A DNA stretch of 64,000 nt, from contig JBCCCT010000001.1 in NCBI GenBank assembly GCA_039033355.1, forward strand, positions 5,893 to 69,892, given 5' to 3'. Each line of letters begins with the position of its first letter. The first letter of the stretch is position 1. The notes under the pieces were generated by a model that was not told where the DNA came from, made no database searches, and was given only the letters and a program-made list of their open reading frames with translations. Of this stretch, positions 6,881 through 36,661 are shown in pieces. The position numbers and the translations under genes were made by a program. Source of the DNA: Pseudomonadota bacterium. Its GTDB lineage: Bacteria > Pseudomonadota > Alphaproteobacteria > Caulobacterales > Hyphomonadaceae.

Positions 6881-7663
6881 ATGCAGGATCGCGTAAAGAC
6901 GTTTGAGAATATTCGAAACTTCCGGGACTTTGGCGGCTATCAGGGCGCCGGTGGACGGTCCATTCGCACCGGCGCGTTGTTTCGCTCGGCCCAGTTTGGT
7001 GAGGCGAGCGAGTCCGACATGGCGGCTCTGGCCGTATACAATATCAAGGTCCAGGCCGATCTGCGTCGTCCGGATGAACGCGAGCGGCACGGCCATCGCT
7101 GGCCCGTAAATGGCGTTCAGGTGATCGCAAGCGACAAGGGCGAGGCGACACAGGCCCCGCATGTGCGATTCCTGACCGAAGTCGCCGTCGATGCCCCAAA
7201 GGCGCATGGCTGGATGGTCGACTATTATCGCGCCGCGCCGTACAAGGAACAGCATATCGAGACCTTCTCGGCCTGGTTCAAGGCGATTGCCGAACTGGCT
7301 TCGGATGAGGCGGCCGTGGTCAATTGCGCCGCTGGAAAAGACCGGACGGGCATTCTCTGCGCGTTGACCCATCATGTGCTTGGCGTTGATCGCGAAGCCA
7401 TATTTGCGGATTACGAGCTGACCAATCAGGCCGCCGATGTTGCCAGCCGCCTGCCGGAAATGGCGCGCCTGTTCAATGACCATATCGGCAAGGATTACGA
7501 CCACGCCGTCTATCACCCCTTTGTCGGGGTAGATGTTAGTTTTCTCGAAGCGGCTTTGGACAGTATTAGCCAACAGTCCGGCGACGTCGACACCTATTTG
7601 AGTGAAACGCTTGGGGTTGATGCTGCGCGCGTCGCAAATTTGCGGAATGCCTATCTGACCTAA
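6881..7663 (+). CDS. Tyrosine-protein phosphatase family protein (CX5R P-loop)
   Basis: The P-loop VNCAAGKDRTG matches the C-x5-R(S/T) signature of PTP-superfamily enzymes. 260 aa. Confidence 0.75.
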   Translation: MQDRVKTFENIRNFRDFGGYQGAGGRSIRTGALFRSAQFGEASESDMAALAVYNIKVQADLRRPDERERHGHRWPVNGVQVIASDKGEATQAPHVRFLTEVAVDAPKAHGWMVDYYRAAPYKEQHIETFSAWFKAIAELASDEAAVVNCAAGKDRTGILCALTHHVLGVDREAIFADYELTNQAADVASRLPEMARLFNDHIGKDYDHAVYHPFVGVDVSFLEAALDSISQQSGDVDTYLSETLGVDAARVANLRNAYLT

Positions 7664-13012: not shown

Positions 13013-13729
13013 ATGGAACCAGCGCTTCAATCGATTCACTACGTCATCGGCGATATTCACGGCCAACGTGATCAGTTGTGCGCCTTGCTCGATGCCATTG
13101 AGGCCCGGCACCGCTGGAAGCATGCGGATCAAAAGGGCGTTCTCGTCTATTTGGGAGATTACATAGATCGTGGCTCAGATTCGCATGCCGTGATCGACCG
13201 CGTCATGGCCGGCGTGGACGGTTTCGAAAGTGTTTTCCTCAAAGGCAATCACGAGGAACTGCTGCTGAACTGCCTTGAGACGGAAGATCGCTCAGCCTGG
13301 AATGTGTGGATGGCTGTCGGGGGAGAGCCGACGCTGAAATCCTTCGGGTATGATCTCTTTTACGAGAAATATAATTCAGCGAAGTTAGCTGAAGTTCTCG
13401 GCCAGCGGGTTCTCAACTGGCTTGGTTCGCTTCAGCTCTTTTATCGACATGCCGATTTTCTGTGCGTGCATGCTGGGCTGTTACCAGGTGCCCTCCTGGA
13501 ACGTCAGAAGGAGAAAGACATGTTGTGGATCCGTCGGCAGTTTCTGGACAGCGATTATGATTTCGGATTTGGCGTGATCCATGGCCACACGCCGTCAGAC
13601 CGGCCGACGGTCAAACCAAATAGAATCGGCATTGATACCGGCGCAGGTCAGGATGGAGACCTCACGGCACTCGTCATTGATAGAGCATGGGCCGACCTGA
13701 TCCGTGAACCGACTTTCATTTCGGTATGA
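13013..13729 (+). CDS. PPP-family metallophosphoesterase (Ser/Thr-type protein phosphatase, PrpA/ApaH-like)
   Basis: GDIHG, GDYIDRG, GNHE and HGHTP motifs occur in canonical order. 238 aa. Confidence 0.8.
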   Translation: MEPALQSIHYVIGDIHGQRDQLCALLDAIEARHRWKHADQKGVLVYLGDYIDRGSDSHAVIDRVMAGVDGFESVFLKGNHEELLLNCLETEDRSAWNVWMAVGGEPTLKSFGYDLFYEKYNSAKLAEVLGQRVLNWLGSLQLFYRHADFLCVHAGLLPGALLERQKEKDMLWIRRQFLDSDYDFGFGVIHGHTPSDRPTVKPNRIGIDTGAGQDGDLTALVIDRAWADLIREPTFISV

Positions 13730-14546: not shown

Positions 14547-15620
14547 CTAGCCGACGGATCGATGCTCCGCAGGCGTGTCAGCGTCCTGGCGTGTCTCGAT
14601 GCCGACGGTCTCGGCGACAATATAGAGCGGCCGGGCTTTGACCTCGGTGAAGATGCGCCCGAGATACTCGCCAATGACACCAATCCCGATCAGGGAAATA
14701 CCATTGAAGAACAGGATCACGCTCATCAATGAGGCATAGCCAGGCGTATCCAATCCAAAGACCAGGGCCTTGGTGACGGTAAATGCAAGATATGCGAGGG
14801 CAAACAGGCTGACGCCAAACCCGAGATAGGACCAGACCCGAAGCGGTAGCGATGAGAAGGACGTGATGCCATCAATCGCGAAATTCCACAGTTTCCAATA
14901 ATTCCACTTGGTTTCGCCAGCGCTGCGCTGTTCGCGGTCATATTCGACAATTTCAGGCTCATAGCCAACCCAGGTGAACAGGCCTTTCATAAACCGTGAG
15001 CGCTCTGGCAGGCGTTTGATGGCGTTGACGACATCGCGGTCCATCAGCCGGAAATCACCGACATTTTGAGGGATTTTCGGATGTGTGAGCTTCGAGAACA
15101 GCCAATAGGCCGCGTTCGCGGTCATCCGCTTGAGCCAGGTATCGCTGGACCGATCGCGGCGCTTTGCGAGGACGAGTTTCGCGCCGGCACGCCATTTGGC
15201 CAACATCAGTGGAATGACTTCAGGCGGGTCCTGCAAATCCGCATCAATCGGGACCACCGCAGCCCCAATCGCATGGTCGATGCCGGCAGACAGGGCGATT
15301 TCCTTGCCAAAGTTGCGCGACAGATTGACGATTTTGATGCGCGAATCTTGCTCGGCCTTGATGCGTAGCAGGCCAAGTGTTTTGTCGCGACTGCCATCAT
15401 TCACGCAAATGATCTCATAGGACTGTGTCACGGTCTGTAACGTCCGTAGCACACGTTTGAAAAAATCGTCGATGACGCTTTCCTCATTATACATAGGGAC
15501 GATGATTGAGAGAGTTGTCACGTTTCGTGTTCCGGTTTCGTCCAACCTGACTAAGGCAAAGAAGTTTCCAAAGGCTTTGCGAATGGGCCCAGTCGCATTG
15601 CGCGCGGAGCCATGAGCCAA
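14547..15620 (-). CDS. GT2 polyprenyl-phosphate glycosyltransferase (ArnC/GtrB-like)
   Basis: Motifs LSIIVPMYNEE, NDGSRD and PIDADLQDPPE, plus two C-terminal TM helices. The track start overlaps the upstream gene by 70 nt, so the true start is probably TTG at 15545 or GTG at 15521. Confidence 0.8.
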   Translation of the reverse strand: MAHGSARNATGPIRKAFGNFFALVRLDETGTRNVTTLSIIVPMYNEESVIDDFFKRVLRTLQTVTQSYEIICVNDGSRDKTLGLLRIKAEQDSRIKIVNLSRNFGKEIALSAGIDHAIGAAVVPIDADLQDPPEVIPLMLAKWRAGAKLVLAKRRDRSSDTWLKRMTANAAYWLFSKLTHPKIPQNVGDFRLMDRDVVNAIKRLPERSRFMKGLFTWVGYEPEIVEYDREQRSAGETKWNYWKLWNFAIDGITSFSSLPLRVWSYLGFGVSLFALAYLAFTVTKALVFGLDTPGYASLMSVILFFNGISLIGIGVIGEYLGRIFTEVKARPLYIVAETVGIETRQDADTPAEHRSVG

Positions 15621-22747: not shown

Positions 22748-23671
22748 TTAGTCGCGGACCATCTTCGGAGCGTCGCCCGAGCTGCGCTGTGCCAGGAAAG
22801 TGGCGAAACTCTCTGCCAGCCGCTTCACCTCATTCCGCAGACGGCCATATTTTCCTCGCATCGAATCATAGCTGTCGAGATCAGGACGATCCATGGCGCT
22901 GAGCGCTTGCACGGATTCGGGAATTGTCGGTCCGAATGTTCGATCCTTCAAATAGATTTCTTTCAACTCGCTTTCAGCATTGCGGGCGTATCGGGTGTTC
23001 TTGAAGCGTGTGATGACCACAAAGTTCCGACGCGCAAGATGCGGAGTGATCTCTGCTGTCACCCAATCGGTAAATTGCTTGGTGCCCCAAATTGAAACTG
23101 AGTCCGCGAGGGTCGGAGTCACATATGTGTTGGCGATGGCCAAACCTGCCCGCGCGATCGGAGACAAATAGGGTGGCGTGTCAATCAGTATAACGTCGTA
23201 TATGCCCGCCAAAGGCTCGATCGCCTTCTCCAGATGTCCGGCGAGATAGCTCGCCAGTCGGCTTGGCGCCATGCCTTTGGAATAGACTTTCTCTTCCAGG
23301 TCCATTTCTGTCAGACGCAATTGTGTGTGTGCCGGAAGAATGGAAATCCAGCCATTGCGTTCGTCACGTTCCTCGGCGCGTCGTAATTCTTCAAGTGTGA
23401 CGGCGTTTGGCAGAATCAGATTGGCAATATTGGGGGGTTGGTTCTCCATGAATTGATGGATCAAGTGATGGACGCCCTTGCCTTGTTTGAAGGCCATTTG
23501 CAAACCGCGATCGGTCAACAGCATCTGGCTGGAATTGGCTTGCGGATCGAAATCCACCACGAGGACATTGGCCCCATAGTAATAAGCCAGGCCATCTGCC
23601 AGCATTAGCGTCGTGGTCGACTTTCCGACTCCACCCTTCAGGTTCGCGATAGCCGCGATTGTTGCAGACAT
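22748..23671 (-). CDS. Orphan ParA/MinD-family P-loop ATPase
   Basis: Deviant Walker A ANLKGGVGKSTTT, then VVDFDPQAN, and the Walker B-like VILIDTPP. There is no ParB-like gene nearby. It lies 54 nt downstream of the O-antigen-ligase-like gene on the same strand. Confidence 0.8.
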   Translation of the reverse strand: MSATIAAIANLKGGVGKSTTTLMLADGLAYYYGANVLVVDFDPQANSSQMLLTDRGLQMAFKQGKGVHHLIHQFMENQPPNIANLILPNAVTLEELRRAEERDERNGWISILPAHTQLRLTEMDLEEKVYSKGMAPSRLASYLAGHLEKAIEPLAGIYDVILIDTPPYLSPIARAGLAIANTYVTPTLADSVSIWGTKQFTDWVTAEITPHLARRNFVVITRFKNTRYARNAESELKEIYLKDRTFGPTIPESVQALSAMDRPDLDSYDSMRGKYGRLRNEVKRLAESFATFLAQRSSGDAPKMVRD

Positions 23672-25027: not shown

Positions 25028-25379
25028 TTTCTGAGTGAGCTCTGTATCAGTGGCCCGTATGTTACGAATCGATGCGATCGAATCACCTCCAAAAATTGAA
25101 GCTTGTGGTGGCTATATCCATGCTCGATTTGCGTGCAAATATTTTTTATTCGATGAACGTGGTGCCAAAAGTGCACAAATTTCGACCTGTAAGATTAACT
25201 TTCAGGTAATTTTTCCCCTGACAGGCGAAGACGTTTGCGTTCGCAGCAAAAGCGAGCGCATAAAGAACTCACGATTTGGTAGATTCTGGGTCATCAAACG
25301 ACAATTAACCTTTGGGTGGGGCTTGGCGTCCGGCTGGCAAGGAACTTGCAGTCATGTCGAGCATGCAAGGGTTAAGGCG

Positions 25380-26096
25380 ATGTTTGATGGAGAAGTGGGA
25401 CGTAAAATGGGATTTCAGTCTTACACGCGTGACTTGAAAAACGCGGATTATGCTGCAGTGCAAAATTTAGGCACCGAGAACCGGGCCAATGGCGCATTGA
25501 AGCGAATTACTGACTTTGCGGTCGCGGCTGCCGCCTTGATTTTCTTGCTGCCGATTATGCTGCCTTTAGCTATTTTCATCCGTCTGTCAGATGGTGGACC
25601 GGCCTTGTTTCGCCAGAAGCGCATTGGGCGCGATGGTCGGGAATTCTGGTGCTTCAAATTTCGTTCAATGGTTGTCGACGCCGATATTCGGTTGCAGCAA
25701 CTGCTGGAGACTGATCCGCGCGCACGCCGCGAATGGCAAGCCACGCAGAAACTCGAAAACGACCCCCGGATCACAGCGTTCGGCCATTTCTTGCGGAAAT
25801 CTTCGCTGGATGAGTTGCCGCAGCTGATCAACATTCTGAAGGGCGAAATGTCCATCGTCGGACCCCGACCAATCGTACAGAATGAAGTCGAGAAATACGG
25901 TGACTATTTCGGCCATTATTGTCAGGTTCGACCTGGTTTGACAGGGCTTTGGCAAGTCAGCGGTCGTAGCGATACGAGCTATGGTGAGCGTGTTGCGCTG
26001 GATGTCAAATATGTGTCCGACTGGTCCTATGTCAGCGACATCAAGATCATGGCCATGACCATTCCAGCCGTCTTGCTGTCTGACGGCGCTCGTTAA
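25380..26096 (+). CDS. Polyprenyl-phosphate hexose-1-phosphate transferase (bacterial sugar transferase; priming enzyme, ExoY/WbaP C-domain type)
   Basis: FRQKRIGRDGREFWCFKFRSM, KLENDPRIT, and DELPQLINILKGEMSIVGPRP. The track ORF (from 25035) has a non-homologous 115-aa extension; ATG at 25380 or 25407 fits the family. Confidence 0.85.
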   Translation: MFDGEVGRKMGFQSYTRDLKNADYAAVQNLGTENRANGALKRITDFAVAAAALIFLLPIMLPLAIFIRLSDGGPALFRQKRIGRDGREFWCFKFRSMVVDADIRLQQLLETDPRARREWQATQKLENDPRITAFGHFLRKSSLDELPQLINILKGEMSIVGPRPIVQNEVEKYGDYFGHYCQVRPGLTGLWQVSGRSDTSYGERVALDVKYVSDWSYVSDIKIMAMTIPAVLLSDGAR

Positions 26097-26194: not shown

Positions 26195-27286
26195 ATGCGG
26201 GTCGCACTGGTACATTATTGGCTGACCAATATGCGCGGCGGCGAGCGCGTCCTCGAAGCGCTGTGCGAGATGTTTCCGCAAGCAACGATTTTCACCCATG
26301 TTGTTGATCGTTCCAAACTAAGCGCGACGGTCAACCGGCATGAGATAAAGACGACCTTCATTTCGAAGTTTCCGTTCGCAACATCGCAATATCAGAAACT
26401 GTTACCCTTCATGCCGCGCGCTCTGGAAGAGATTGATCTTTCTGAGTTCGATCTGGTCATCTCGTCCGAGTCCGGGCCGGCAAAGGGCGTGATCACGCGG
26501 CCGGATGCTTTTCATCTTTGTTACTGCCACTCTCCCATGCGCTACATTTGGGATCTCTACCCACACTATTTAGGCAGTGCTGGCTTTCTCGCCCGACAGG
26601 CATTCCCCGGAATCGCGCACCGTCTGCGAACCTGGGATGTGACCAGCGCTGCGCGGGTCGATCAGTTCGCGGCGAATTCAAATTTCGTGAAGCAGCGAAT
26701 TCGGAAATTTTATCGGCGCGACAGCGCGGTTATCCATCCGCCAGTCGCTGTCTCCGAATTCGCCCAAGCGCGTGTCGACGTGCCGGGCGACTATTTTTTG
26801 GCGGCAGGTGAGCTGGTTGGCTATAAACGCTTTGACCTGGTCGTCGATGTCTTCACCAAAATGGGCCTGCCATTGGTTGTGATTGGCGATGGCGAACAAA
26901 AGAAAGATCTGCAAAACCGCGCCGGACCAAATGTCGAATTTCTCGGGCGCGTGGATTTCACCGAGTTGAAGCGCCGGTTCGGTGAATGCAAAGCGCTGGT
27001 CTTTCCGGGTGAAGAAGACTTTGGCATCGTCCCAGTCGAAGTCATGGCCGCGGGTCGGCCTGTTATCGCCTATGGTCGCGGCGGCGCGCTGGACACGGTT
27101 GTTGATGGTCAGACCGGAATCCTGTTTGAAGAACAATCGGTCGACTCGCTGATTGAGGCCGTGTCGAAGTTTGAGAAAGTCTCTTTCGACAGTGATGCCA
27201 TCCATCAACATGCCACAGGCTTTTCCGGGCAGGTTTTCAAGGATGGTATTCGCGCCTTGCTGTCGCAGAACGGAATCGAGATTTAA
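26195..27286 (+). CDS. GT4-family glycosyltransferase
   Basis: The N-terminus is MRVALVHYWL. The C-terminal GT-B motif is GEEDFGIVPVEVMAAGRPVIAYGRGG (E-x7-E). Confidence 0.8.
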   Translation: MRVALVHYWLTNMRGGERVLEALCEMFPQATIFTHVVDRSKLSATVNRHEIKTTFISKFPFATSQYQKLLPFMPRALEEIDLSEFDLVISSESGPAKGVITRPDAFHLCYCHSPMRYIWDLYPHYLGSAGFLARQAFPGIAHRLRTWDVTSAARVDQFAANSNFVKQRIRKFYRRDSAVIHPPVAVSEFAQARVDVPGDYFLAAGELVGYKRFDLVVDVFTKMGLPLVVIGDGEQKKDLQNRAGPNVEFLGRVDFTELKRRFGECKALVFPGEEDFGIVPVEVMAAGRPVIAYGRGGALDTVVDGQTGILFEEQSVDSLIEAVSKFEKVSFDSDAIHQHATGFSGQVFKDGIRALLSQNGIEI

Positions 27287-27939
27287 TCCTGTCCCAGGCC
27301 AATCTCATTCGGACGGGCTGGGGTGTCGATTTTTCGGCGATAGGTGTCGAATGGAATATTGCGCGCCATAGCGGCCTGCCGCACGTCCTCCAGATAATCG
27401 TAATCAAGATGCCACCAACGGAGAAAGTCAGCGCCTGAAAAAGCATGCATCCTGTTTGCTTCGCTAACATCATCCCAATTCGCGAGGACGAACGTAAATC
27501 GCCAGCGCAACAGCGATTTGTCGCAATAAGGGCACGCCTCGAATGAGCGATTGAGATCTGCATCAACCGCGGCTGTGAACCGCTCAGTCGATTGCTGCCT
27601 GACAAAGGCCAGGAAGGCCCAAGCCTGGTAATCGCTCGGAGCGCTTGCCAGGGCGCGCTCCAAAAGTGTGATCGTCAACGCGGATTGTTCGGCGTCATTT
27701 GCATAAAGCGCGCGCGCAGTTGCTTCCCATTCGGCGGGATCTGCAACCCGAACCTGATCGGACAGGCGTTGCGCGTGTTCCAGAGGATTCATTTCTCCAC
27801 TCTTGATCGCCTGGATTCGCCCAACCGAGCGTTGGGTCGAGAGGGCCGACCAGATCGGCAGTAAAAGGGCTGCGAGAATCACAAGGGCATAGAGCGGAGA
27901 CAGGCGATCAGACATTAATTCTCTTGTAATCCAAGTCAT
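27283..27939 (-). CDS. Membrane-anchored hypothetical protein
   Basis: 218 aa with one N-terminal TM (LYALVILAALLLPIWSAL) and a helical soluble part. It is convergent with the GT4 gene, with a 4-nt overlap. Confidence 0.5.
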   Translation of the reverse strand: MTWITRELMSDRLSPLYALVILAALLLPIWSALSTQRSVGRIQAIKSGEMNPLEHAQRLSDQVRVADPAEWEATARALYANDAEQSALTITLLERALASAPSDYQAWAFLAFVRQQSTERFTAAVDADLNRSFEACPYCDKSLLRWRFTFVLANWDDVSEANRMHAFSGADFLRWWHLDYDYLEDVRQAAMARNIPFDTYRRKIDTPARPNEIGLGQD

Positions 27940-28413
27940 TACAGAAGTTTATATCCCCATCGACTGGAAACATGCTAGCTATGATATAGGTCACAGTTAA
28001 GCAGAAAACGGTTTCCGAGTTCTTTTTTGATTAATACGTCATCAACGACCGCACCTTACACTTCCTTCATAGCAGAGCCGGATGATACATGAATGAGCTT
28101 TTTCACGCGTCAGGAAGAAGTTAGATCAGGCACCGCGGGGACGCTGCGAACACGCGATGAACTCGTTTCAGAGCGGCAACCTCGATCGCGATCTAGCAAA
28201 TGGCCGTTGCGTTGGGTTACGCTGGCAGTCGTAACCCTGTGTAGTGCCTTCTGGATCACGTTTTTTGCGTTGATTTTCTAGCCTCAATATTAACATGGTA
28301 TAGACTATGCATGCCTGGCGTAGCCAGGGTGAAATGCAATGCTGACTTGCGGTGCCGTTTGACCCTGAAACACCTATAGGTATAGTCAAACCGGGGATTC
28401 TATCGGGCGCGAA

Positions 28414-29301
28414 ATGTTGAATTGGCCGCGAACCTTTTTTCGCTTTTTTAGGCGAAACCTCCAAGATTTGGTGGAACGGATTTCGCGTGCGACTCAACGC
28501 CGGCTGAATTTTGGCACTCCCACCTCGACCAAATCGCCGGACAAACCAGCCATCACCGCGCAAGTCTCGACCGAGGTGCCTGACGGAATTTTGGACGAGG
28601 CGACGCTGATCTATGCCATTGGCGATATCCATGGCCGGGCAGATTTATTGGCCAATCTACTCGACCGGATCGATCAGGATGCAACCGGTTTTTTGGGCGA
28701 CGTCCATATCGTTTTTCTAGGTGACTATATCGATCGGGGATTTCAATCACGTCAGGTCGTGGAAATCCTGCTGAGCGAGCGCTTGAATCCGTATCGAACA
28801 CACTTTCTGAAGGGCAATCATGAAGACGCGCTCCTTTCCTTCTTGTCGGATGCCGATTTCGGTCCGAAATGGGCCGCTTATGGCGGCCGCGAAACGATGG
28901 TGTCCTATGGTGTAAAGCCGCCGCGGAGCATGAGTCTGAATCCGGAATGGGAAACGGCGCATAACGAGTTTTTGAAGAGTTTTCCGAACGCTCACCTGCT
29001 TTTCTTCCGCGGCTTGCCCACGCGTGTGAAGATAGGTGGATATGGATTTGTGCATGCCGGTATGCGTCCGGGGCGTAGCTTTGATGAGCAAAACGATTAT
29101 GATCTTATGTGGATCAGGGACGAATTTTTGCGCGGGGACTCGACTTTTGACGTCAAAGTCGTCCACGGGCACACGCCAACGGATGCGCCGTACAATGATG
29201 CGCGACGAATTAATGTCGATACCGGCGCATATTTTACAGGCCGTTTGACGGCCGTGAAACTGACAGGACAAACGGTAGAATTTATCGCTACCCAAACTTG
29301 A
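28414..29301 (+). CDS. PPP-family metallophosphoesterase (second paralog) with a basic ~65-aa N-terminal extension
   Basis: GDIHG, GDYIDRG, GNHE and VHGHTP motifs. It lies directly upstream (24 nt) of the wza-like gene. The start is uncertain because there is no clear SD. Confidence 0.75.
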   Translation: MLNWPRTFFRFFRRNLQDLVERISRATQRRLNFGTPTSTKSPDKPAITAQVSTEVPDGILDEATLIYAIGDIHGRADLLANLLDRIDQDATGFLGDVHIVFLGDYIDRGFQSRQVVEILLSERLNPYRTHFLKGNHEDALLSFLSDADFGPKWAAYGGRETMVSYGVKPPRSMSLNPEWETAHNEFLKSFPNAHLLFFRGLPTRVKIGGYGFVHAGMRPGRSFDEQNDYDLMWIRDEFLRGDSTFDVKVVHGHTPTDAPYNDARRINVDTGAYFTGRLTAVKLTGQTVEFIATQT

Positions 29302-29325
29302 GGAATTGAGAGGAAGTACAGAAAG

Positions 29326-29898
29326 ATGCGCTTAGGAATCAGTATCGCACTTGCAACCATGTTGATTGTTGGCGCCTGCCAATCGAGCGCGCCTGCGCGC
29401 GATGTGAGCGGAAGTGACGCGATATCGCAGCGGGTTGTAGGTGACTATCGTCTCGGCGCTTCGGATCAGATCCGTATCACTGTGTTTGGTGAGCCCGAAC
29501 TCTCCGGGGAGTATCTTCTGGATGGCTCTGGTACGGTCTCCCTGCCCTTGATCGGCGAGGTCACCGCCCTGGATCTGACCATTCGCGAGTTCGAGGCGGC
29601 CATCGCGGACGGTTATTCGAATGGCTATTTACGGGATCCACGCGTGAATGCGGAAGTGATGAATTATCGGCCCTTCTACATTCTCGGCGAAGTCCGCACA
29701 CCAGGTGAATATCCCTATAGCAGTGGCCTGACCGTCTTGAACGCGGTGGCCACCGCCGGGGGTTTTACGTATCGCGCAAATGATGACGTGATCCTGATCC
29801 GCGGCGCTGATGATACGCAGGAAACTCGCGTCCGGCTGGATCCAAACACGCCGATTCTTCCAGGCGACACCATTCGCGTAATGGAGAAGTTTTTCTAG
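29326..29898 (+). CDS. Short outer-membrane polysaccharide export (OPX, Wza-like) lipoprotein
   Basis: Lipobox LIVGAC, a Poly_export region (YRLGASDQIRITVFGEPELSGEY..DGSGTVSLPLIG) and one SLBB-like domain (FYILGEVRTPGEYPY). At only 190 aa it has no room for a C-terminal OM-spanning helix. Confidence 0.85.
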   Translation: MRLGISIALATMLIVGACQSSAPARDVSGSDAISQRVVGDYRLGASDQIRITVFGEPELSGEYLLDGSGTVSLPLIGEVTALDLTIREFEAAIADGYSNGYLRDPRVNAEVMNYRPFYILGEVRTPGEYPYSSGLTVLNAVATAGGFTYRANDDVILIRGADDTQETRVRLDPNTPILPGDTIRVMEKFF

Positions 29899-29985
29899 GA
29901 CAGCTCGCGTCAATCGAGAGTCTCGTTTGGCCGGTGCGTCAAACTTGGTATTATGTAAGGTAGAGAATAAAGGGTGAACAGGATT

Positions 29986-30453
29986 ATGAGTAGAGTAATA
30001 GCATCTATAATAGTGGCATCGGGATTGACCTTGACAGCCTTGGCAGACCAGCCCGATCGCATCGAGCAGACGGGTGAAGCGCTGGCCTGGACAGTGGCGG
30101 CATATGGGTCTTGCGAAGATGAAAACCAATTGCAGGTGGATTTCAAACAGGAAGCAGCGACGCTCCAATCAGACTTCACCGAAGTCATGGCAGCCCTGGC
30201 CATTTTGTCTGACGCCAATAATGTTTGTGGCATGAAAACCACATTTGCGATCGACATGCAGCAGCTCGCGACGACTGATATGAAGTCGTTTGAAGCGAAA
30301 TTGTTGACCTTTGAAGATCCACCAGAGCCTGTCTTTGGTTCAGATCAACCGGAAGGAGCGGGCGAATCTCATGCGAGCGTCATTCTGGAGGCGGCGAGCA
30401 CACCTCCGCCAGAAAGCAGCGGCGCACCGTCCAGCGAGTCGGATTACCAGTGA
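29986..30453 (+). CDS. Secreted hypothetical protein
   Basis: Signal peptide MSRVIASIIVASGLTLTALA and a low-complexity P/S-rich C-terminus. The start is either GTG at 29974 or ATG at 29986. Confidence 0.5.
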   Translation: MSRVIASIIVASGLTLTALADQPDRIEQTGEALAWTVAAYGSCEDENQLQVDFKQEAATLQSDFTEVMAALAILSDANNVCGMKTTFAIDMQQLATTDMKSFEAKLLTFEDPPEPVFGSDQPEGAGESHASVILEAASTPPPESSGAPSSESDYQ

Positions 30454-30458
30454 TCTAG

Positions 30459-30485
30459 ATCCGGCCTTCGGGCCGGATATTTTTT
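30459..30485 (+). terminator. Rho-independent terminator
   Basis: ATCCGGCC-TTCG-GGCCGGAT (8-bp stem) followed by ATTTTTT, 6 nt after the stop of the preceding ORF. Confidence 0.65.
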
Positions 30486-30574
30486 AAGAATTCACTGGCA
30501 TTAAGAGCGTCGATACGTTTTTACGTCAAACCCAAGGCTGGGAATTGGGAAAATTAGAGTTAGGCACGAAACCA

Positions 30575-31840
30575 ATGACACACCGTGATATCAAATTTGG
30601 CGCTCTGATTGCGCTGAGCTTCGCTTTGGGGACTGGCACAGTCGCGGCGCAGGAAGACGAAGACTTCTTCATCCGGGATAAGTATGAAGCAGTTACCGAA
30701 CGGGCACAGCCCGAGTTCGATCCACTACCAGTTCGCGTGGGTGCATTCGAAGCGCGTCCGCAAGCTGGCTTCTCTGCTGGTTTTACCGACAACCTGTTCG
30801 CGACCACGGCAAACGAAACCGATGACACATTTGTCGGCTTCACCCCAAGTGTTGAGCTAGACTCAACCTGGAGCCGTCATGCACTCGGTTTCAATCTCGA
30901 TCTTGACCATCTCGAATATACTGATGTGAGTTCAGAGAGTCGGACAAATCTGGGGCTAGGCGCCGAAGGCCGCGTGGATGCGAGCAATGCAGTCGCCTTG
31001 TTTGGATCTGTGCGTTTCGATGATTTGACTGAACCACGCTCGAATATTGCAAGTTTGCAAAATGCGGCCGAGCCTGTTGAATTCAGCCGCGTTGGCGGCG
31101 AAGCCGGTTTTCTCTACCAATCCGGTCGAATCAGGATTCGCACCGCTGCAGGCCTGGTGACTTTCGACTTCGACGATATCGAACTCGATGGCGGCTTGAT
31201 CCAGGATCAGGATTTTCGCGATCGCGATGAAACCACCATCTCAAGTCGGTTCTCTTATGCGGTCGAACGGGACTGGGCAGTGTTCGCGGAAGCTGTTTAC
31301 ACCGATAATGACTATGACCCGCCAAATATCTTCAACGCGTTCAATCGTGACTCTCAAGGCACAGCATTGCGCGTTGGGTCGGATTTTGAACTCGCCAGTC
31401 TGTTGCGCGGCGATATCGGCGTGGGCTATCAGCAATATGAGTATGACGATCCGTCCTTCTCCGATGTTGATGGCGTTTCAGTTGTCGGCAATCTGCAATG
31501 GTTCGTGACACAACTCACAACGATCTCCGGCAATGCCCAGCGCAATGTTATCGATCCAGGCCTGGTGCTGAGTAACGCTGCGGTTGAAACCAGTATCTCT
31601 GGACGTGCCGATCATGAATTGCGACGCAACCTGATTCTCACGGGTGAAGCGCGATTCACCAATTTCGATTTCGAGAACATCGCCCGAGATGATGACAGAT
31701 TCACCGCCAGAGTTGGTGCAACCTGGAAAATTAACCCAAATATCTGGTTAGATGGCTCTTATGAGTTGACTGACCAATCCTCAAACGTGCAAGATTTCTC
31801 AGAAAATCGCGTGCTGTTTGGCCTGCGCATTTTCCCGTAA
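30575..31840 (+). CDS. Outer-membrane beta-barrel protein (Wzp-like candidate partner of the short OPX)
   Basis: Signal peptide MTHRDIKFGALIALSFALGTGTVAAQ. The sequence shows alternating amphipathic beta-strand patterning with many D/N/G turns, and an aromatic C-terminal strand (VLFGLRIFP). The track start (TTG at 30545) is less likely. Confidence 0.6.
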   Translation: MTHRDIKFGALIALSFALGTGTVAAQEDEDFFIRDKYEAVTERAQPEFDPLPVRVGAFEARPQAGFSAGFTDNLFATTANETDDTFVGFTPSVELDSTWSRHALGFNLDLDHLEYTDVSSESRTNLGLGAEGRVDASNAVALFGSVRFDDLTEPRSNIASLQNAAEPVEFSRVGGEAGFLYQSGRIRIRTAAGLVTFDFDDIELDGGLIQDQDFRDRDETTISSRFSYAVERDWAVFAEAVYTDNDYDPPNIFNAFNRDSQGTALRVGSDFELASLLRGDIGVGYQQYEYDDPSFSDVDGVSVVGNLQWFVTQLTTISGNAQRNVIDPGLVLSNAAVETSISGRADHELRRNLILTGEARFTNFDFENIARDDDRFTARVGATWKINPNIWLDGSYELTDQSSNVQDFSENRVLFGLRIFP

Positions 31841-31911
31841 GAGCAGGGTGTAATTTAGGCCCGAGTCTTGCTCATCAGAGCAAGACTCTGTGCCATTGAG
31901 GGAAGTAGATT

Positions 31912-34167
31912 GTGAACAAGCCGTTTCGCCTAGCCGCCCGTGATCAGTCGCGGGCGGTCTATCATTCAGAATATGGGCTCCCGAGCGAAGACAAGATCAC
32001 GGATCCTAATCAGGTTCTTCGTGCTTTTCGGCGACGCCTGCCCTTATTCTTCATCACCTTGCTCACAGTTTTTGGTGCGGTTGCAGCCTGGACGTTCCAG
32101 GCAACCCCGGTCTTCTCGACCAGTGCCTCTGTCATTATTGATGCCCGCGAAACCAATGTGGTCGATTTTGGCTCAGTTTTGTCCGGCTTGCCGCCAGACT
32201 CTGCAGTTGTCGATACGGAAGTTGAGATTATTCGATCGCGCACACTTGCTGAGAAAATCGTTCGACGTCTCGATCTCGTGAATTCGCCGGAATTTAACTC
32301 GCGCTTGCGTGAACCAGGTACAATGGATCAATTCCGGGCCGGGCTTAAGTCGGTCCTGAATGGGGTTTTTAGTGGTCCGGATGCGCCGGAAGCGCCAGTC
32401 GATTCCGAAACGGCGGCCCGCGCCGAGATGGATGGCGTGGTCGATGCATTCCTGTCCAGGACGGGCGCATATCGAATTGGCACGACTTACGGGATCGCCA
32501 TTTCAGCCAGCAGCACCAATCCTCGTTTGGCGGCTTCGATCGCGAATGAGGTTGCTGACCAATATCTGCTCGAACAGCTGGATGCGAAATATGAAGCGAC
32601 ACGACGCGCCAACGCCTGGATCGAGGATCGTTTGGCTGAGTTGCGTGAAGAGCTGAACAATGCCGAAAGTCTGGTCGAAGCCTATCGATCGGCATCCGGC
32701 CTGTTCACGTCTGGTGCCACAACGCTCAACGAACAACAGATGACGGACCTCAATGCGCAGTTGATTGTGCAGCGGGCGGACCTGGCCGAGCGCGAGGCAC
32801 GCCTGGAATCTGTGCGGCAGATCGCCCAGCGTGGTGGATCCGCCGCCGCGAGTTCTGAAGCCCTGCAGTCGCCAGTCATCGCAGACCTGCGTCGTCAGCA
32901 AGCCGAGATCAATCGCGAAAAGGCCGATCTGGAAAACCGCTATTTGCCGAACCACCCTGAGATCCAGCGGATCAATCAGGAAATCGCCAACGTGAATTCC
33001 GAGATCCAAAGTGAAATTCGCCGGATCGTCTCGAACCTGGAAAGCGAAGTTACAATTGCGCGCCAACGCCTGAACAGCCTGGAGCGAAACCTGTCCACCA
33101 TGCGAGCCACCCTCGCCGAGAATAATAGAGCCAGCGTGCGTTTGCGCGAGCTGGAGCGAAATGCAGAAGCGTCACGCACCACTTATGAGACTTATCTCGA
33201 ACGGTATAAGCAGATTGATGATCAGGAAGATCTGGCCCAGGCGGATGCACGTATTCTGTCGCGCGCTACGGTTCCCGGCGCACCTTCTTTCCCCAAAACG
33301 TCTTTGAATTTGGTGATCGGGGTGATCCTGGGCGGCATGTTTGGCATTCTTGTCGTCATCATCACGGAGTCTTTGAACAGTCAGATCAGTACCGGCGACG
33401 ATGTCGAAGCCAATTTCAAGGTTCCGTTCCTTGGCAATTTCCCGCAACTCAAGGGTCAGGGCCGAAAGGATCCGGCCGACTATCTCGTCAACAACCCGAT
33501 GTCGAGTTATGCGGAAGCTTTGCGAAACTTACGCGCCTCGCTTCTGTTTGCCGATCTGGATTCGACGATCAAGACCGTGGCCATCACCTCGTCGCAGCCC
33601 AATGAAGGTAAGTCGACTCTGACCTATGGGCTCGGTCGAATGTCCGCCATGTCGGGGACAAAAACCTTGATCATTGATGGCGACTTCCGTCGTCGCCAAT
33701 TGTCGGTCGCAACTGTAGGTGATGAGCCGGTCAATGGCTTCCTGGAATGTCTGTTTGGCGAATGCTCGCTGGAAGAGGCGATCATGAAAGACAACAAGAC
33801 TGACTTGCATATTCTTCCATTGACCGCCGACCGTCACACACCACGGGATGTATTCGGGTCTCGGGTCTTTGACGAGATTCTGGAGCGCCTGAAACAGGAA
33901 TATGATCTGATCATTTTTGACACAGGTCCAATTCTATTGATGGCTGAAACACGGGTCCTGACCAGCAAGGTGGATCAGGTTGTCGTCGTCGCACGCTGGT
34001 TGAAGACCAACCGTGCCGCGCTTAAGCAGACCCTGTCTATTCTCACTGATTTCGGTGCGACTGTGACCGGCATTGCGATCAATCGCGTCGATGTCGATAA
34101 GTACCATCGCCAAGGCTATGGTCACTCGGGATATCGATCATACTCGAAATATTACTCGAACGGCTAA
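31912..34167 (+). CDS. Polysaccharide co-polymerase / BY-type tyrosine autokinase (Wzc/ExoP/GumC-like)
   Basis: A Wzz-like N-terminal domain with two TM helices and a long coiled periplasmic region. The C-terminal P-loop domain carries Walker A SSQPNEGKST, A' LIIDGDFRRR and B LIIFDTGP, and ends in the tyrosine cluster YHRQGYGHSGYRSYSKYYSNG. GTG start. Confidence 0.85.
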   Translation: MNKPFRLAARDQSRAVYHSEYGLPSEDKITDPNQVLRAFRRRLPLFFITLLTVFGAVAAWTFQATPVFSTSASVIIDARETNVVDFGSVLSGLPPDSAVVDTEVEIIRSRTLAEKIVRRLDLVNSPEFNSRLREPGTMDQFRAGLKSVLNGVFSGPDAPEAPVDSETAARAEMDGVVDAFLSRTGAYRIGTTYGIAISASSTNPRLAASIANEVADQYLLEQLDAKYEATRRANAWIEDRLAELREELNNAESLVEAYRSASGLFTSGATTLNEQQMTDLNAQLIVQRADLAEREARLESVRQIAQRGGSAAASSEALQSPVIADLRRQQAEINREKADLENRYLPNHPEIQRINQEIANVNSEIQSEIRRIVSNLESEVTIARQRLNSLERNLSTMRATLAENNRASVRLRELERNAEASRTTYETYLERYKQIDDQEDLAQADARILSRATVPGAPSFPKTSLNLVIGVILGGMFGILVVIITESLNSQISTGDDVEANFKVPFLGNFPQLKGQGRKDPADYLVNNPMSSYAEALRNLRASLLFADLDSTIKTVAITSSQPNEGKSTLTYGLGRMSAMSGTKTLIIDGDFRRRQLSVATVGDEPVNGFLECLFGECSLEEAIMKDNKTDLHILPLTADRHTPRDVFGSRVFDEILERLKQEYDLIIFDTGPILLMAETRVLTSKVDQVVVVARWLKTNRAALKQTLSILTDFGATVTGIAINRVDVDKYHRQGYGHSGYRSYSKYYSNG

Positions 34168-34232
34168 AGGCGGTTTCAATGGCGGGAGGCTTGCATGCTT
34201 CCTGTCACTGAATGCAATTTTGAGGCACGGCA

Positions 34233-35120
34233 ATGGGTGAACAATCAACGATCGTAGTGGGTGTTGCGACCCTGGGGCGGCCAGATGATGTCGCCGATCT
34301 GCTCGAGGGCTTGCAGAAGCAAACCCGTATGGCCACCAAGGTCGTCCTTTCCGTCACAGATATGGAAAAAGACGCACCACCGGAAGAAAAGCGCTTTGGC
34401 GCCGAGGTCCTGATTGGCAGCAAGGGATTGTGTGCGCAGCGCAATCGAATTCTCGAAAAAGTCGGCCACGATTACGACTATCTGGTCTTCTTTGATGATG
34501 ATTACATTCCATCAAAATCGGCCATTGAAGGTGTGATCGACTTCTTCGATACCAATCCTGACGTGGTTGGCATTACGGGTCACTTGCTGGCGGATGGTAT
34601 TCTCGGACCAGGCATTACGCGCGATGAGGCCGTTGCTCTAATCGAGGCGTTTGATGCTGAGCCAGCCCCCGCGCCGACGCGGGTCAATGGCCTGCGCGGT
34701 TTGTATGGCTGTAACATGGCCTACCGTCTGTCAGCGATCGAAACCGAAAGGTTCGATGAAAAACTGCCACTCTATGGCTGGCAGGAAGATGTGGATTTTT
34801 CGAACCGTTTGATGGCGAAAGGTGATCTGGTGGAAACCAATGCGTTTGTCGGCGTGCATCGCGGCACCAAACGCTCGCGTTCACCAGGCAAGAAATTGGG
34901 CTATTCGCAAGTCGCCAACCCGCTTTACCTCGTCAAGAAAGGGTCCATGAGTCGAGGCCGCGCCTATAAACTGATGATCAAGAACCTGATCGCCAATCAT
35001 GTGAAAATCATGACTCCGGAGCCATGGGTCGATCGCGTCGGTCGCGCAAATGGCAATTGGCATGCCTTGTTTGATCTGCTGCGCGGCAAAATGGACCCGC
35101 AAAAGATCAACTCGCTCTGA
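34233..35120 (+). CDS. GT2-like glycosyltransferase
   Basis: IVVGVATLGRPD and the DxD context LVFFDDDYIP. 295 aa, soluble. Confidence 0.7.
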   Translation: MGEQSTIVVGVATLGRPDDVADLLEGLQKQTRMATKVVLSVTDMEKDAPPEEKRFGAEVLIGSKGLCAQRNRILEKVGHDYDYLVFFDDDYIPSKSAIEGVIDFFDTNPDVVGITGHLLADGILGPGITRDEAVALIEAFDAEPAPAPTRVNGLRGLYGCNMAYRLSAIETERFDEKLPLYGWQEDVDFSNRLMAKGDLVETNAFVGVHRGTKRSRSPGKKLGYSQVANPLYLVKKGSMSRGRAYKLMIKNLIANHVKIMTPEPWVDRVGRANGNWHALFDLLRGKMDPQKINSL

Positions 35121-35179
35121 CATCTGATGATGCTGCGTCCTTCTCTGCTGTCCCGAATTGAACCGATCGGAGTCACCCT

Positions 35180-36661
35180 GTGTCTCTGATTGGACTGATC
35201 TTTATCGCTTTGGCCGCAGCAGCGGTCTTCCGCTCACAGATGGCGGCGCTGTCTGTGATGGGTATCGCCGCCTTGTTTCAAGCTGCGACGGTCATGGATC
35301 TGGGCATGGCCACCATTCCGCCCGGCCATGTGACACTGGCCTTTTTTATTCTGGCTGTAGTATTGCGGGTCAATGGTCTTGGGGTGGCGGTGTCAGCTCT
35401 GGTCTATCCAAGGGCCGGTTTCTTCCTCGCCATGCTGGTGGGGTGGGCGGTGATTTCAGGCTTTGTCCTGCCGCGTGCCTTTGCCGGCATGGTTCAGGTC
35501 ATCCCGCTGAACCTGATTGGCGACTATTTCGTCAAAGTGCCGCTCTTCCCCCGGTCCGCAAACTTGAATCAATCGGTCTATTTCATCGGTAATCTTTGTG
35601 CATTCCTGTTTGTCTTCGGGATGATGAAAAGCCCGGGCATGTTGAAAAAGGCGGCTGGTGCAGGGTTGATCATTTGCGGGGCCAATATGGCGATTGCGGT
35701 TCTCGACTCATTTACGTTTGCCATCGGTCAGCCCAACCTCCTGGATTTCATGCGGAACGCTGGTTACTCGCAATTATTCGGTGCGACCGTTATGGGTCTC
35801 AAGAGAATGACCGGGTCCTTCACCGAGGCTTCAGCCTTCTCGGCCATGGCGGTTGGCCTGTTCGCCTTCGCGTTCCGATTGTGGCGCGGCGGTGTTTACA
35901 CAAAATGGTCCGGCCCGCTTGCCATGGCTTTGGCCCTGGGCGTGGTGCTCGCCTTTTCGTCGACCGGATTTGTCGCCTTCGGAGTCTATTTCATTGTCAC
36001 GTACTCCCTGAACCTCGTTTCGCAAGAAGGTGGCGGCGGAATTGCCGGCGCGCAATCACGCCGCATGTTCTTCGTGTCTCTGGCGCCGATTGGCGCTCTG
36101 GCGATCGCCGTCCTGGTCGCACTGCGGCCGGATGTGCTGGACCCTGTGGTTGAACTGTTTGACAGTTCCATCGTCACCAAGTTGTCGAGTGCCAGCGGTC
36201 AGGAGCGGATGGCCTGGAATCTGAGCGGGATCAGCAACTTTTTCAGCACCTTTGGCCTTGGTGTGGGTCTCGGATCGGTGCGGACGTCGAGCTTCCTGGT
36301 CTCCGTGCCGGCCAATCTCGGCGTGATCGGCATCCTGCTCTATGGTGCTTTCTTTTATCGGCTCTTCTTCTCGTCCAATGGACAACGCTGGGGTCATATC
36401 GACCCTGAGAGTGAGCAGATCGTTGCCGCCGCCCGATCCTCCTGTTTTGCCCTGTTGATCGCCGCTGCTGTATCGTCTTCGACGATGGATCTCGGCCTGA
36501 TCTTTCACATAATGGCAGGCATTGCCTGTTCATCACCGGCCTATTTCCTGCGCCAGAGCGCGCGTGGCCCGGGCCCCGTTGAGGCGGCGGAGTATGACGG
36601 CTTGGGGAATGTCCAAGGCCTCGATGGCTATCCAGGTAACTTCAATCAACCGCCGCGTTAG
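35180..36661 (+). CDS. Polytopic membrane protein, second Wzy-type polymerase candidate
   Basis: 493 aa with about 11-12 hydrophobic helices. GTG start. I saw no recognisable catalytic motif, so the call rests on topology and context only. Confidence 0.5.
   Translation: MSLIGLIFIALAAAAVFRSQMAALSVMGIAALFQAATVMDLGMATIPPGHVTLAFFILAVVLRVNGLGVAVSALVYPRAGFFLAMLVGWAVISGFVLPRAFAGMVQVIPLNLIGDYFVKVPLFPRSANLNQSVYFIGNLCAFLFVFGMMKSPGMLKKAAGAGLIICGANMAIAVLDSFTFAIGQPNLLDFMRNAGYSQLFGATVMGLKRMTGSFTEASAFSAMAVGLFAFAFRLWRGGVYTKWSGPLAMALALGVVLAFSSTGFVAFGVYFIVTYSLNLVSQEGGGGIAGAQSRRMFFVSLAPIGALAIAVLVALRPDVLDPVVELFDSSIVTKLSSASGQERMAWNLSGISNFFSTFGLGVGLGSVRTSSFLVSVPANLGVIGILLYGAFFYRLFFSSNGQRWGHIDPESEQIVAAARSSCFALLIAAAVSSSTMDLGLIFHIMAGIACSSPAYFLRQSARGPGPVEAAEYDGLGNVQGLDGYPGNFNQPPR

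Follow-up and report, generated by a model that had tools for sequence, protein, structure and literature searches.

A PPP-family metallophosphatase encoded beside wza and a BY-kinase gene in an alphaproteobacterial polysaccharide export locus

The phosphatase gene and its export cluster

A 64-kb stretch of DNA from a Hyphomonadaceae bacterium (assembly GCA_039033355.1, contig JBCCCT010000001.1, positions 5,893 to 69,892; the whole stretch is called the window below) carries the gene of a PPP-family metallophosphatase directly ahead of a short wza gene and in the same cluster as the gene of a Wzc-like tyrosine autokinase (BY-kinase). This phosphatase and its relation to the polysaccharide export genes around it are the subject of the present analysis. 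Seven co-directional open reading frames (ORFs) occupy positions 28414-36661 of the forward strand with gaps of 24 to 91 nt, the start codon of the wza-like gene lying 24 nt past the stop codon of the phosphatase gene and the gaps ahead of the two genes downstream of the kinase gene (a GT2 glycosyltransferase and a 493-residue protein) measuring 59-65 nt. An initial annotation, made from the sequence alone, had proposed the order PPP phosphatase, short wza, secreted ORF, outer-membrane barrel and wzc; all five ORFs are real and lie in this order on the forward strand. Since genes of the Bac_transf, GT1, Wzy_C and Wzx type flank the cluster in Pfam searches, the region from about 22.7 to 45 kb can be described as a Wzx/Wzy-type polysaccharide locus. 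The coordinates of the features are collected in Table 1.

The GDIHG (D71, H73), GDYIDRG (D104, R108), GNHE (N135, H136) and HGHTP (H251, H253) motifs that had been read in the phosphatase are all present, and further motifs were located at HAG (H214), WIR (R235) and VDTG (V268-D269-T270-G271). Across 64 homologues the metal- and phosphate-binding residues (D71, H73, D104, R108, N135, H136, H214, R235, H251 and H253) are invariant, as are D269, T270 and G271 of the bacterial-type VDTG motif. The eukaryotic SAPNY motif is absent from the sequence, and the combination of (I/L/V)D(S/T)G close to the C-terminus with a lack of SAPNY places the enzyme among the bacterial-like PPP phosphatases. Membership of the PPP family is likewise seen in the PF00149 / MPP_PPP metal-binding motifs and in the calcineurin-like α/β sandwich of the AlphaFold2 model, which has a mean predicted local distance difference test (pLDDT) score of 89.6 overall and of more than 90 across the catalytic domain (residues ~60-295). 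Foldseek matched this model to lambda PP, RLPH2, PP5, PP1 and PP2A, each with a probability of 1.00. By sequence, profile and fold, the nearest solved structures are RLPH2, lambda PP, the phosphatase domain of PnkP, an ApaH-like protein and a cold-active tyrosine phosphatase from Shewanella. The protein has no signal peptide or transmembrane segment and is therefore taken to be cytoplasmic.

Ahead of the catalytic domain lies a basic extension of about 65 residues, which the initial annotation had described as absent from a paralogue at position 13013; the alignment and the AlphaFold2 models bear this out. A helix is modelled at residues 4-29 with moderate confidence (block-mean pLDDT 63-81) and residues 33-54 fall below 50. 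The hydrophobic moment of the N-terminal helix, FFRFFRRNLQDLVERISR, is 0.80. Extensions of 20-115 residues occur in 62 of the 63 homologues measured and carry a net positive charge in 53 of these 62, so that the homologues keep the character of the extension and not its sequence. Consistent with such poor sequence conservation, tblastn of the 65-residue extension alone against the related loci returned no match. A role of the extension in targeting the enzyme to the membrane or to Wzc may be inferred from the predicted structure.

The wza-like gene encodes an OPX lipoprotein of the short, class-3 type. Its lipobox is IVGAC, and its length leaves no room for the D4 helix of Wza, the C-terminal helix that would span the outer membrane. 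Translocons in which a short OPX protein is combined with a separate β-barrel have been described (PMC9601211, PMC9603273), and the arrangement here, a 190-residue Poly_export and SLBB lipoprotein with a BBP2_2 barrel encoded nearby, corresponds to them; the barrel is presumed to be the outer-membrane pore partner of the OPX protein. In a kinase-anchored scan of metagenomes, described below, a BBP2_2 homologue stood immediately upstream of Wzc in 77 of the 80 loci.

The 159-residue protein encoded between the OPX and barrel genes has an N-terminal hydrophobic segment and an acidic tail rich in proline and serine. Sequence homologues were found in close relatives only (6/80 kinase-anchored loci). 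A secreted protein of 134-165 residues always lies between the short OPX and BBP2_2 genes in the window and in two Caulobacteraceae-type loci, L043 (12556-13053) and L167 (13566-13970). The small protein could thus assist the OPX/barrel translocon as an accessory component.

The kinase is of the PCP-2a BY-kinase type, with two transmembrane segments, a periplasmic coiled-coil domain and a cytoplasmic P-loop kinase domain. The full Walker A/A'/B set that had been reported for it was located at residues 561 (SQPNEGKS), 586 (LIIDGDFR) and 666 (LIIFDTGP), and an ExxRxxR motif lies at residue 535. Its C-terminal cluster, previously counted as seven tyrosines, comprises six in the last 21 residues (Y731, Y736, Y741, Y744, Y747 and Y748). 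Eight Wzc homologues (loci L105, L106, L110, L143, L108, L115, L124 and L127) end in a conserved tail, …VQTPPE… or …VQVPPSKA…, and have no tyrosine in their last 25 residues; in these proteins the tyrosine cluster is either internal or missing.

Table 1. Positions of the phosphatase gene, the export cluster and neighbouring features in the window.
Feature	Position	Strand	Evidence and remarks
PPP metallophosphatase, 295 aa	28414..29301	+	Pfam Metallophos E = 1.6e-15; first gene of export cluster
N-terminal extension of the phosphatase, aa 1-65	28414..28608	+	predicted basic amphipathic helix (aa 4-29) and disordered linker (aa 33-54)
Short OPX lipoprotein (Wza-like), 190 aa	29326..29898	+	Poly_export + SLBB (Pfam, NCBIfam); lipobox
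Small secreted protein, 159 aa	29974..30453	+	signal peptide; no Pfam/NCBIfam family match
BBP2_2 (PF10082) outer-membrane β-barrel, 431 aa	30545..31840	+	Pfam E = 1e-91
PCP-2a BY-kinase (Wzc-like), 751 aa	31912..34167	+	Pfam Wzz + GNVR + AAA_31; NCBIfam TIGR01005 (E = 2.7e-101), TIGR01007
GT2 glycosyltransferase	34233..35120	+	Pfam Glycos_transf_2
Hydrophobic protein, 493 aa, possibly polymerase or ligase	35180..36661	+	no Pfam family match
Promoter-like site TTGACC-16-TATAGT	28359..28386	+	consensus scan, 10/12 matches; ends 27 nt before phosphatase start
Strong terminator-like hairpin: stem of 8 bp with 6 G-C pairs, followed by T-run	30459..30478	+	consensus scan; directly 3' of small secreted-protein gene
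Small ORF, 62 aa, C-terminal transmembrane segment	28093..28281	+	intergenic, between divergent 218-aa gene and phosphatase gene
Single-transmembrane protein, 218 aa, divergent from phosphatase gene	27283..27939	-	N-terminal transmembrane segment; no reliable family match
Initiating phosphoglycosyl transferase (Bac_transf)	25035..26096	+	Pfam E = 1.9e-66

Linkage to export genes and the search for other phosphatases and kinases

The surroundings of the phosphatase gene were surveyed from two sides. In the phosphatase-anchored survey one genome per species was scanned, giving 80 loci from different alphaproteobacterial species; a locus was treated as well-flanked (n=52) if either flank extended for 8 kb or more. 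The kinase-anchored survey was a scan of metagenomes built on an alignment of six Wzc sequences and likewise gave 80 loci, 34 of them well-flanked. A survey of synteny had been suggested in the initial annotation, and the pairing of the PPP gene with wza, barrel or wzc genes recurred in both: Wza, BBP2_2 or Wzc lay within 10 kb of the phosphatase homologue in 35/80 loci (29/52 well-flanked), and a PPP gene was found in 33/80 kinase-anchored loci (19/34 well-flanked), always together with Wza. Wza followed directly downstream on the same strand in 19 of the 80 phosphatase-anchored loci, and a Bac_transf gene was adjacent to the phosphatase homologue in 11.

Linkage between PPP and export genes was found in Hyphomonadaceae, Caulobacteraceae, Parvibaculum, Kordiimonas, Bradyrhizobium and Ancylobacter, and further in Micropepsaceae, Ferrovibrio, Geminicoccaceae, Azospirillum and Roseobacteraceae. 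The linked loci are scattered over the whole neighbour-joining tree of the phosphatase family, which argues for an old association and not an accident of one clade. With few export loci in a genome of several megabases, chance alone should produce linkage at a level of a few per cent, as a rough and not a computed expectation. Judged from gene order, the observed linkage is far above this level and is found in several rearranged architectures. The comparison supports the view that, in many alphaproteobacterial orders, export loci of this Wzx/Wzy type include the PPP gene among their conserved parts.

Annotated plasmid records supply further, independent examples, in some of which the phosphatase gene adjoins the kinase gene. 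On plasmid p1 of Azospirillum sp. TSH100 (L085, 8884-12023) the metallophosphoesterase coding sequence overlaps that of the BY-kinase (tyrosine autokinase) by 25 nt, suggesting translational coupling of the two, and on a Pseudosulfitobacter plasmid the phosphatase gene lies between those of a full-length OPX protein and a tyrosine autokinase. On pP72_a of Phaeobacter inhibens (L169, 4605-9654) the homologue is divergent from a yjbH-yjbF-OPX operon resembling that of group 4 capsules, and the E. coli counterpart of such an operon carries Etp, a protein tyrosine phosphatase of low molecular weight (LMW-PTP).

The number of tyrosines in the Wzc tail was also compared with the presence of the PPP gene, and no correlation was seen; the last 25 residues contain on average 5.4 tyrosines with and 5.8 without a PPP gene at the locus. 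As the 15 well-flanked kinase loci without a PPP gene keep a tyrosine-rich Wzc tail, PPP presence does not track the tyrosine cluster, and this comparison supports neither side.

BY-kinases are commonly paired with phosphatases of the LMW-PTP (Wzb) or PHP (CpsB) type, and the initial annotation had seen neither at this locus. The queries were E. coli Wzb and S. pneumoniae CpsB; checked against the PDB, the former scored 330 bits with 2FEK and the latter 535 bits with 2WJD. By tblastn, both produced only noise in the 64-kb window (E above 1), and phmmer at E <= 1, run on 16,146 stop-to-stop ORFs (50 residues or longer) of the window and 84 phosphatase-anchored loci, matched neither query to any of them, in agreement with the initial reading. 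Likewise, LMW-PTP, PHP and Y_phosphatase3 proteins were each found in 0/80 of the kinase-anchored loci (E <= 1e-3), leaving PPP as the sole type detected there of the four phosphatase types searched. The window phosphatase itself shows no similarity to E. coli Wzb and is a metalloenzyme that falls outside the LMW-PTP class, with its C-X5-R-(S/T) P-loop and DP motif; it falls equally outside the CpsB-type PHP class, and nothing CpsB-like was found anywhere in the window. A scan of the window and of 164 related loci detected no Hanks-type kinase motif, and the BY-kinase is the only protein kinase detected beside the phosphatase gene.

A phosphatase of another family does occur in the window, a CX5R protein of the Y_phosphatase3 family (PF13350, E = 7.8e-57) encoded at 6881-7663 on the forward strand. 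It was rejected as a component of the locus, lying 21 kb off among unrelated genes (CN_hydrolase, pirin) and being found in 0/164 related loci.

Relatives in known systems and neighbouring genes

The closest described system is the capsule locus CCNA_00162-00168 of Caulobacter crescentus, in which CCNA_00167 was labelled a putative 'Wzb-like metallophosphatase' with the Wza-like CCNA_00168 and the Wzc-like CCNA_00163 as neighbours; in-frame deletion of CCNA_00167 gave non-capsulated cells and was complemented (Ardissone et al. 2014, eLife, PMC4241560). As in the window, a metallophosphatase thus stands beside a Wza-like OPX protein, here of ~198 residues, and a Wzc-like PCP with a tyrosine-rich tail. 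Peptides of the Caulobacter proteins were obtained by translating the cloning primers in the eLife 2014 supplement. The CCNA_00167 peptide LLWIRNDF (ending at residue 208) corresponds to LMWIRDEF at 231-238 of the window phosphatase, the CCNA_00168 C-terminus RIGERFF to IRVMEKFF of the window OPX protein, and the CCNA_00163 C-terminus YRKYYAD to YSKYYSNG of the window kinase. On a Caulobacteraceae-type contig containing exactly LLWIRNDF, the genes encode Peptidase_C93 (HvyA family), PPP, Bac_transf, a 198-residue Wza, a small ORF, BBP2_2 and PCP, and L043 and L167 hold the same module plus a BTLCP gene. The Caulobacteraceae homologues are nearer to the window phosphatase (45-46% identity, ~200 bits) than to the paralogue at 13013 (40-42%, ~145 bits). 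By these comparisons the window enzyme qualifies as a CCNA_00167-type capsule metallophosphatase, the orthology resting on the primer peptides and on related contigs. The Caulobacteraceae proteins differ in being ~260 residues long with an N-terminal extension of 20-30 residues as against 65 in the window, and the Caulobacter locus additionally holds the BTLCP regulator HvyA, for which the window was not searched.

A second described relative is PssZ of Rhizobium leguminosarum bv. trifolii, a PPP phosphatase of 263 residues in the Pss-I exopolysaccharide (EPS) cluster; EPS is not made by the pssZ::Tn5 mutant strain (Lipa et al. 2018, PMC6071215). By description it is, as here, a PPP enzyme in an alphaproteobacterial EPS cluster; it differs in its variant first motif, SDVHG, and its authors take it for a Ser/Thr phosphatase whose regulatory effects are global.

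Among solved structures the first match by sequence (1.6e-10) and by profile (4.6e-19) in the PDB is the plant phosphatase RLPH2, the next profile matches being at 5.8e-17 and 7.9e-17. Arabidopsis RLPH2 (PDB 5VJV) is phosphotyrosine-specific (PMC12817480), and was originally defined by similarity to alphaproteobacterial PPPs, of which 'group I' is related to the plant Rhilphs (Andreeva & Kutuzov 2004, PMC535813). Common to the window enzyme and to RLPH2 and its bacterial kin are the bacterial-type (I/L/V)D(S/T)G motif and, between GNHE and HAG, an insert with a PxxH motif; RLPH2 is also among the top Foldseek matches. In this insert the window sequence FLKSFPNAH stands against the group I pattern LxxAxPxxH; P191 and H194 do not vary among the homologues, F takes the place of L, and S that of A. 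In contrast, identity in the Foldseek alignment is ~20%, the lead of RLPH2 over lambda PP and PnkP is about two orders of magnitude in E-value, and RLPH2 has no N-terminal extension, a longer insert and plant MAP kinases as substrates.

Compact bacterial PPP enzymes are represented by lambda PP (Foldseek E = 1e-12), E. coli PrpA/PrpB and the Shewanella enzyme (1V73/2Z72 matched). Lambda PP, PrpA/PrpB and the 1V73 enzyme hydrolyse phosphotyrosine as well as phosphoserine and phosphothreonine. They share the fold with the window phosphatase and differ from it in that none comes from a polysaccharide export locus and none has a basic N-terminal extension. The likeness to Wzb and CpsB is one of genomic position, beside OPX and BY-kinase genes, and of the proposed dephosphorylation of the tyrosine cluster; there is no relationship of sequence or fold, and the chemistry differs, with a binuclear metal centre in the window PPP, a Cys-X5-Arg thiol in Wzb and a trinuclear PHP site in CpsB.

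The paralogue at 13013-13729 (forward strand) is a second PPP metallophosphatase of 238 residues, 36% identical to the first and without its N-terminal extension. With 40-42% identity to the phosphatases of the Caulobacteraceae capsule loci, it can be placed in one family with them. A GT2 gene (14547-15620, opposite strand) lies ~0.8 kb downstream of it and a gene for a BlaR1-like protein upstream.

Several features immediately around the cluster may bear on its expression and content. The promoter-like site ahead of the phosphatase gene is positional evidence only, because such sites are no more numerous here than in shuffled sequence. The hairpin 3' of the small secreted-protein gene may, as a weak and positional indication from the sequence, split a transcript of phosphatase, OPX and orf159 from one of barrel, kinase and glycosyltransferase. 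Homologues of the divergent 218-residue protein are present in 26/80 kinase-anchored loci, and in the Caulobacteraceae locus L043 a divergent ORF of similar size (11187-11858) lies between phosphatase and Wza; the export module may thus include this protein as a part not yet characterised. The 62-residue ORF is probably a real small membrane protein, since sequences with 38-47% amino acid identity occupy the equivalent position in the metagenome loci L098, L089 and L090. The true start of the Bac_transf gene probably lies well downstream of 25035, because the domain covers residues 156-347 and ~150 N-terminal residues fall outside it.

Further upstream, a ParA/MinD-type ATPase gene (22748-23671, reverse strand) lies beside the Wzy_C gene, and the same pair is kept in L003, L005 and L006. 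The ATPase was rejected as a second BY-kinase, its Walker A motif KGGVGKS being of the ParA/MinD type and a tyrosine tail being absent. A metagenomic contig (L087, ERZ1740072 NODE-189) is 88.7% identical in DNA to window positions 28705-35000 and encodes a Wzc that is 98% identical, indicating that the sample contains an organism closely related to the source of the window.

The probable role of the phosphatase and its possible substrates

Gene content, the intact catalytic site, the conserved synteny, the lack of canonical phosphatases and Hanks-type kinases nearby and the kinship to a Caulobacter capsule gene are all matters of observation, and by our own estimate, which is not a computed figure, the phosphatase gene is very probably a functional part of the polysaccharide locus. 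The initial annotation had gone further and suggested that Wzc might have its cognate phosphatase in this enzyme. The pairing itself is conserved, as the two surveys and the gene overlap in Azospirillum illustrate, no canonical rival was found in the window or the scanned loci, the BY-kinase is the sole protein kinase detected at hand, and the enzyme is akin to RLPH2 and lambda PP; that part of the suggestion has held, while Wzc phosphotyrosine as the substrate is not established and is inferred from comparison and analogy. On this footing we consider it the more probable reading that the 295-residue enzyme is the protein phosphatase of the locus, acting on the tyrosine cluster of Wzc and so filling the role of Wzb.

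The phosphatase would then be a cytoplasmic two-metal PPP enzyme dedicated to the adjacent Wzx/Wzy machine for EPS or capsule, made up of the short OPX protein, the BBP2_2 barrel and the PCP-2a BY-kinase. Its basic amphipathic helix and flexible linker would tether the catalytic domain to the cytoplasmic membrane on its inner side, close to the ring of Wzc kinase domains, where it would strip phosphate from the six-tyrosine C-terminal cluster. Wzc could thereby cycle between a phosphorylated, disassembled state and a dephosphorylated, octameric state, as polymerisation and export require. In E. coli this dephosphorylation role is held by the LMW-PTP Wzb and in streptococci by the PHP enzyme CpsB.

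Several points weigh against this reading. Some 40% of the well-flanked homologue loci have no export gene within 10 kb, and at some loci only a phosphoglycosyl transferase stands beside the phosphatase, as a Bac_transf-PPP pair. The pSymB-type homologue of Sinorhizobium (S. meliloti), with 219 residues and no N-terminal extension, lies away from export genes, so that not every member of the family is linked to EPS. Conversely, 15/34 well-flanked kinase loci have no PPP gene nearby, and their Wzc tails are tyrosine-rich all the same. The pssZ mutant is pleiotropic, nearly all Pss-I genes being transcriptionally silenced, and its authors read the enzyme as a regulatory Ser/Thr phosphatase (PMC6071215). 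The PPP class is promiscuous, its relatives here including hydrolases of diadenosine tetraphosphate (Ap4A) and the PnkP phosphatase domain, and the lead of RLPH2 among the matches is marginal. The window covers 64 kb of the genome, and a wzb gene elsewhere is possible. Finally, our literature search found no paper testing the substrate of any enzyme in this bacterial group.

Some of these points would fit a Ser/Thr or dual-specificity phosphatase whose substrate is another component or regulator of the pathway, such as the initiating phosphoglycosyl transferase, some glycosyltransferase, or a protein of transcription or signalling that controls the locus. In the 11 loci mentioned above Bac_transf directly adjoins the phosphatase, and in L081-L084 it is the only polysaccharide gene to do so, the interpretation of PssZ and the silencing of its cluster point the same way, and NCBIfam and Pfam record similarity to PrpA/PrpB-type Ser/Thr phosphatases. 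However, no Ser/Thr kinase motif of the Hanks type was found in the window or the 164 loci, the only adjacent kinase detected is the BY-kinase, with which the gene even overlaps in Azospirillum, and the closest solved plant relative is tyrosine-specific. We regard another protein substrate as unlikely, if still the best of the alternatives.

Action on a phosphoester other than a protein appears improbable; candidates would be dinucleoside polyphosphates, nucleotides and phosphorylated intermediates, sugar or lipid, of glycan assembly or signalling, and the likeness to a protein phosphatase would then be one of appearance. In favour are the kinship of the family with Ap4A hydrolases of the ApaH and PrpE types and with the phosphatase domain of PnkP, and the N-terminal helix, whose membrane-seeking character would be equally in keeping with a substrate linked to lipid. 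Against this, the NCBIfam equivalog scores are far under their cut-offs (PrpE, for instance, 49.5 bits against 340), and periplasmic undecaprenyl pyrophosphate would be out of reach of a protein without signal peptide or transmembrane segment; moreover, such a substrate leaves the conserved pairing with the BY-kinase module unexplained. That the phosphatase is a mere neighbour, with Wzc dephosphorylated by an LMW-PTP encoded outside the window, by the Y_phosphatase3 protein 21 kb upstream or by no dedicated phosphatase at all, would agree with the span of the window, with the CX5R signature of that protein and with the kinase loci lacking a PPP gene, but is hardly likely given that the linkage recurs in many alphaproteobacterial orders and several rearranged forms, that Y_phosphatase3 accompanies none of the 164 scanned loci and that loss of the Caulobacter orthologue abolishes the capsule.

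The dedication of the phosphatase to Wzc had been put forward as a non-canonical pairing, and the novelty so implied does not hold, as CCNA_00167 of Caulobacter (PMC4241560) and PssZ of Rhizobium (PMC6071215) had already been described; the window gene is an orthologue of a described gene and not a new system. What the survey adds is the spread over many orders and several locus architectures, the lack of a canonical phosphatase with these kinases and of Hanks-type kinases nearby, and a possible tie to RLPH2. A 2022 JBC review of BY-kinases names LMW-PTP and PHP partners only, and a text search of one paper on short-OPX/barrel translocons found no mention of a phosphatase.

Accounts of BY-kinase regulation thus name two families of partner phosphatase, and in many alphaproteobacterial Wzc loci the recurrent phosphatase is a PPP metalloenzyme; genetics in Caulobacter and Rhizobium has shown such PPP genes to be needed for capsule or EPS. 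More tentatively, the alphaproteobacterial PPP group may represent a third lineage-wide family of cognate BY-kinase phosphatases, directed at phosphotyrosine and tethered near Wzc by the N-terminal helix, and may also be the stock from which plant RLPH2 arose. If Wzc is indeed dephosphorylated by these enzymes, the kinase/phosphatase cycle by which polysaccharide export is gated would have a third solution, unrelated in mechanism to the other two, and these enzymes would offer a handle on the control of EPS and capsule in marine and plant-associated alphaproteobacteria. Descent from phosphotyrosine-directed bacterial PPPs, if true, might also account for the tyrosine specificity of the PPP-fold 'Rhizobiales-like' phosphatase RLPH2 of plants.

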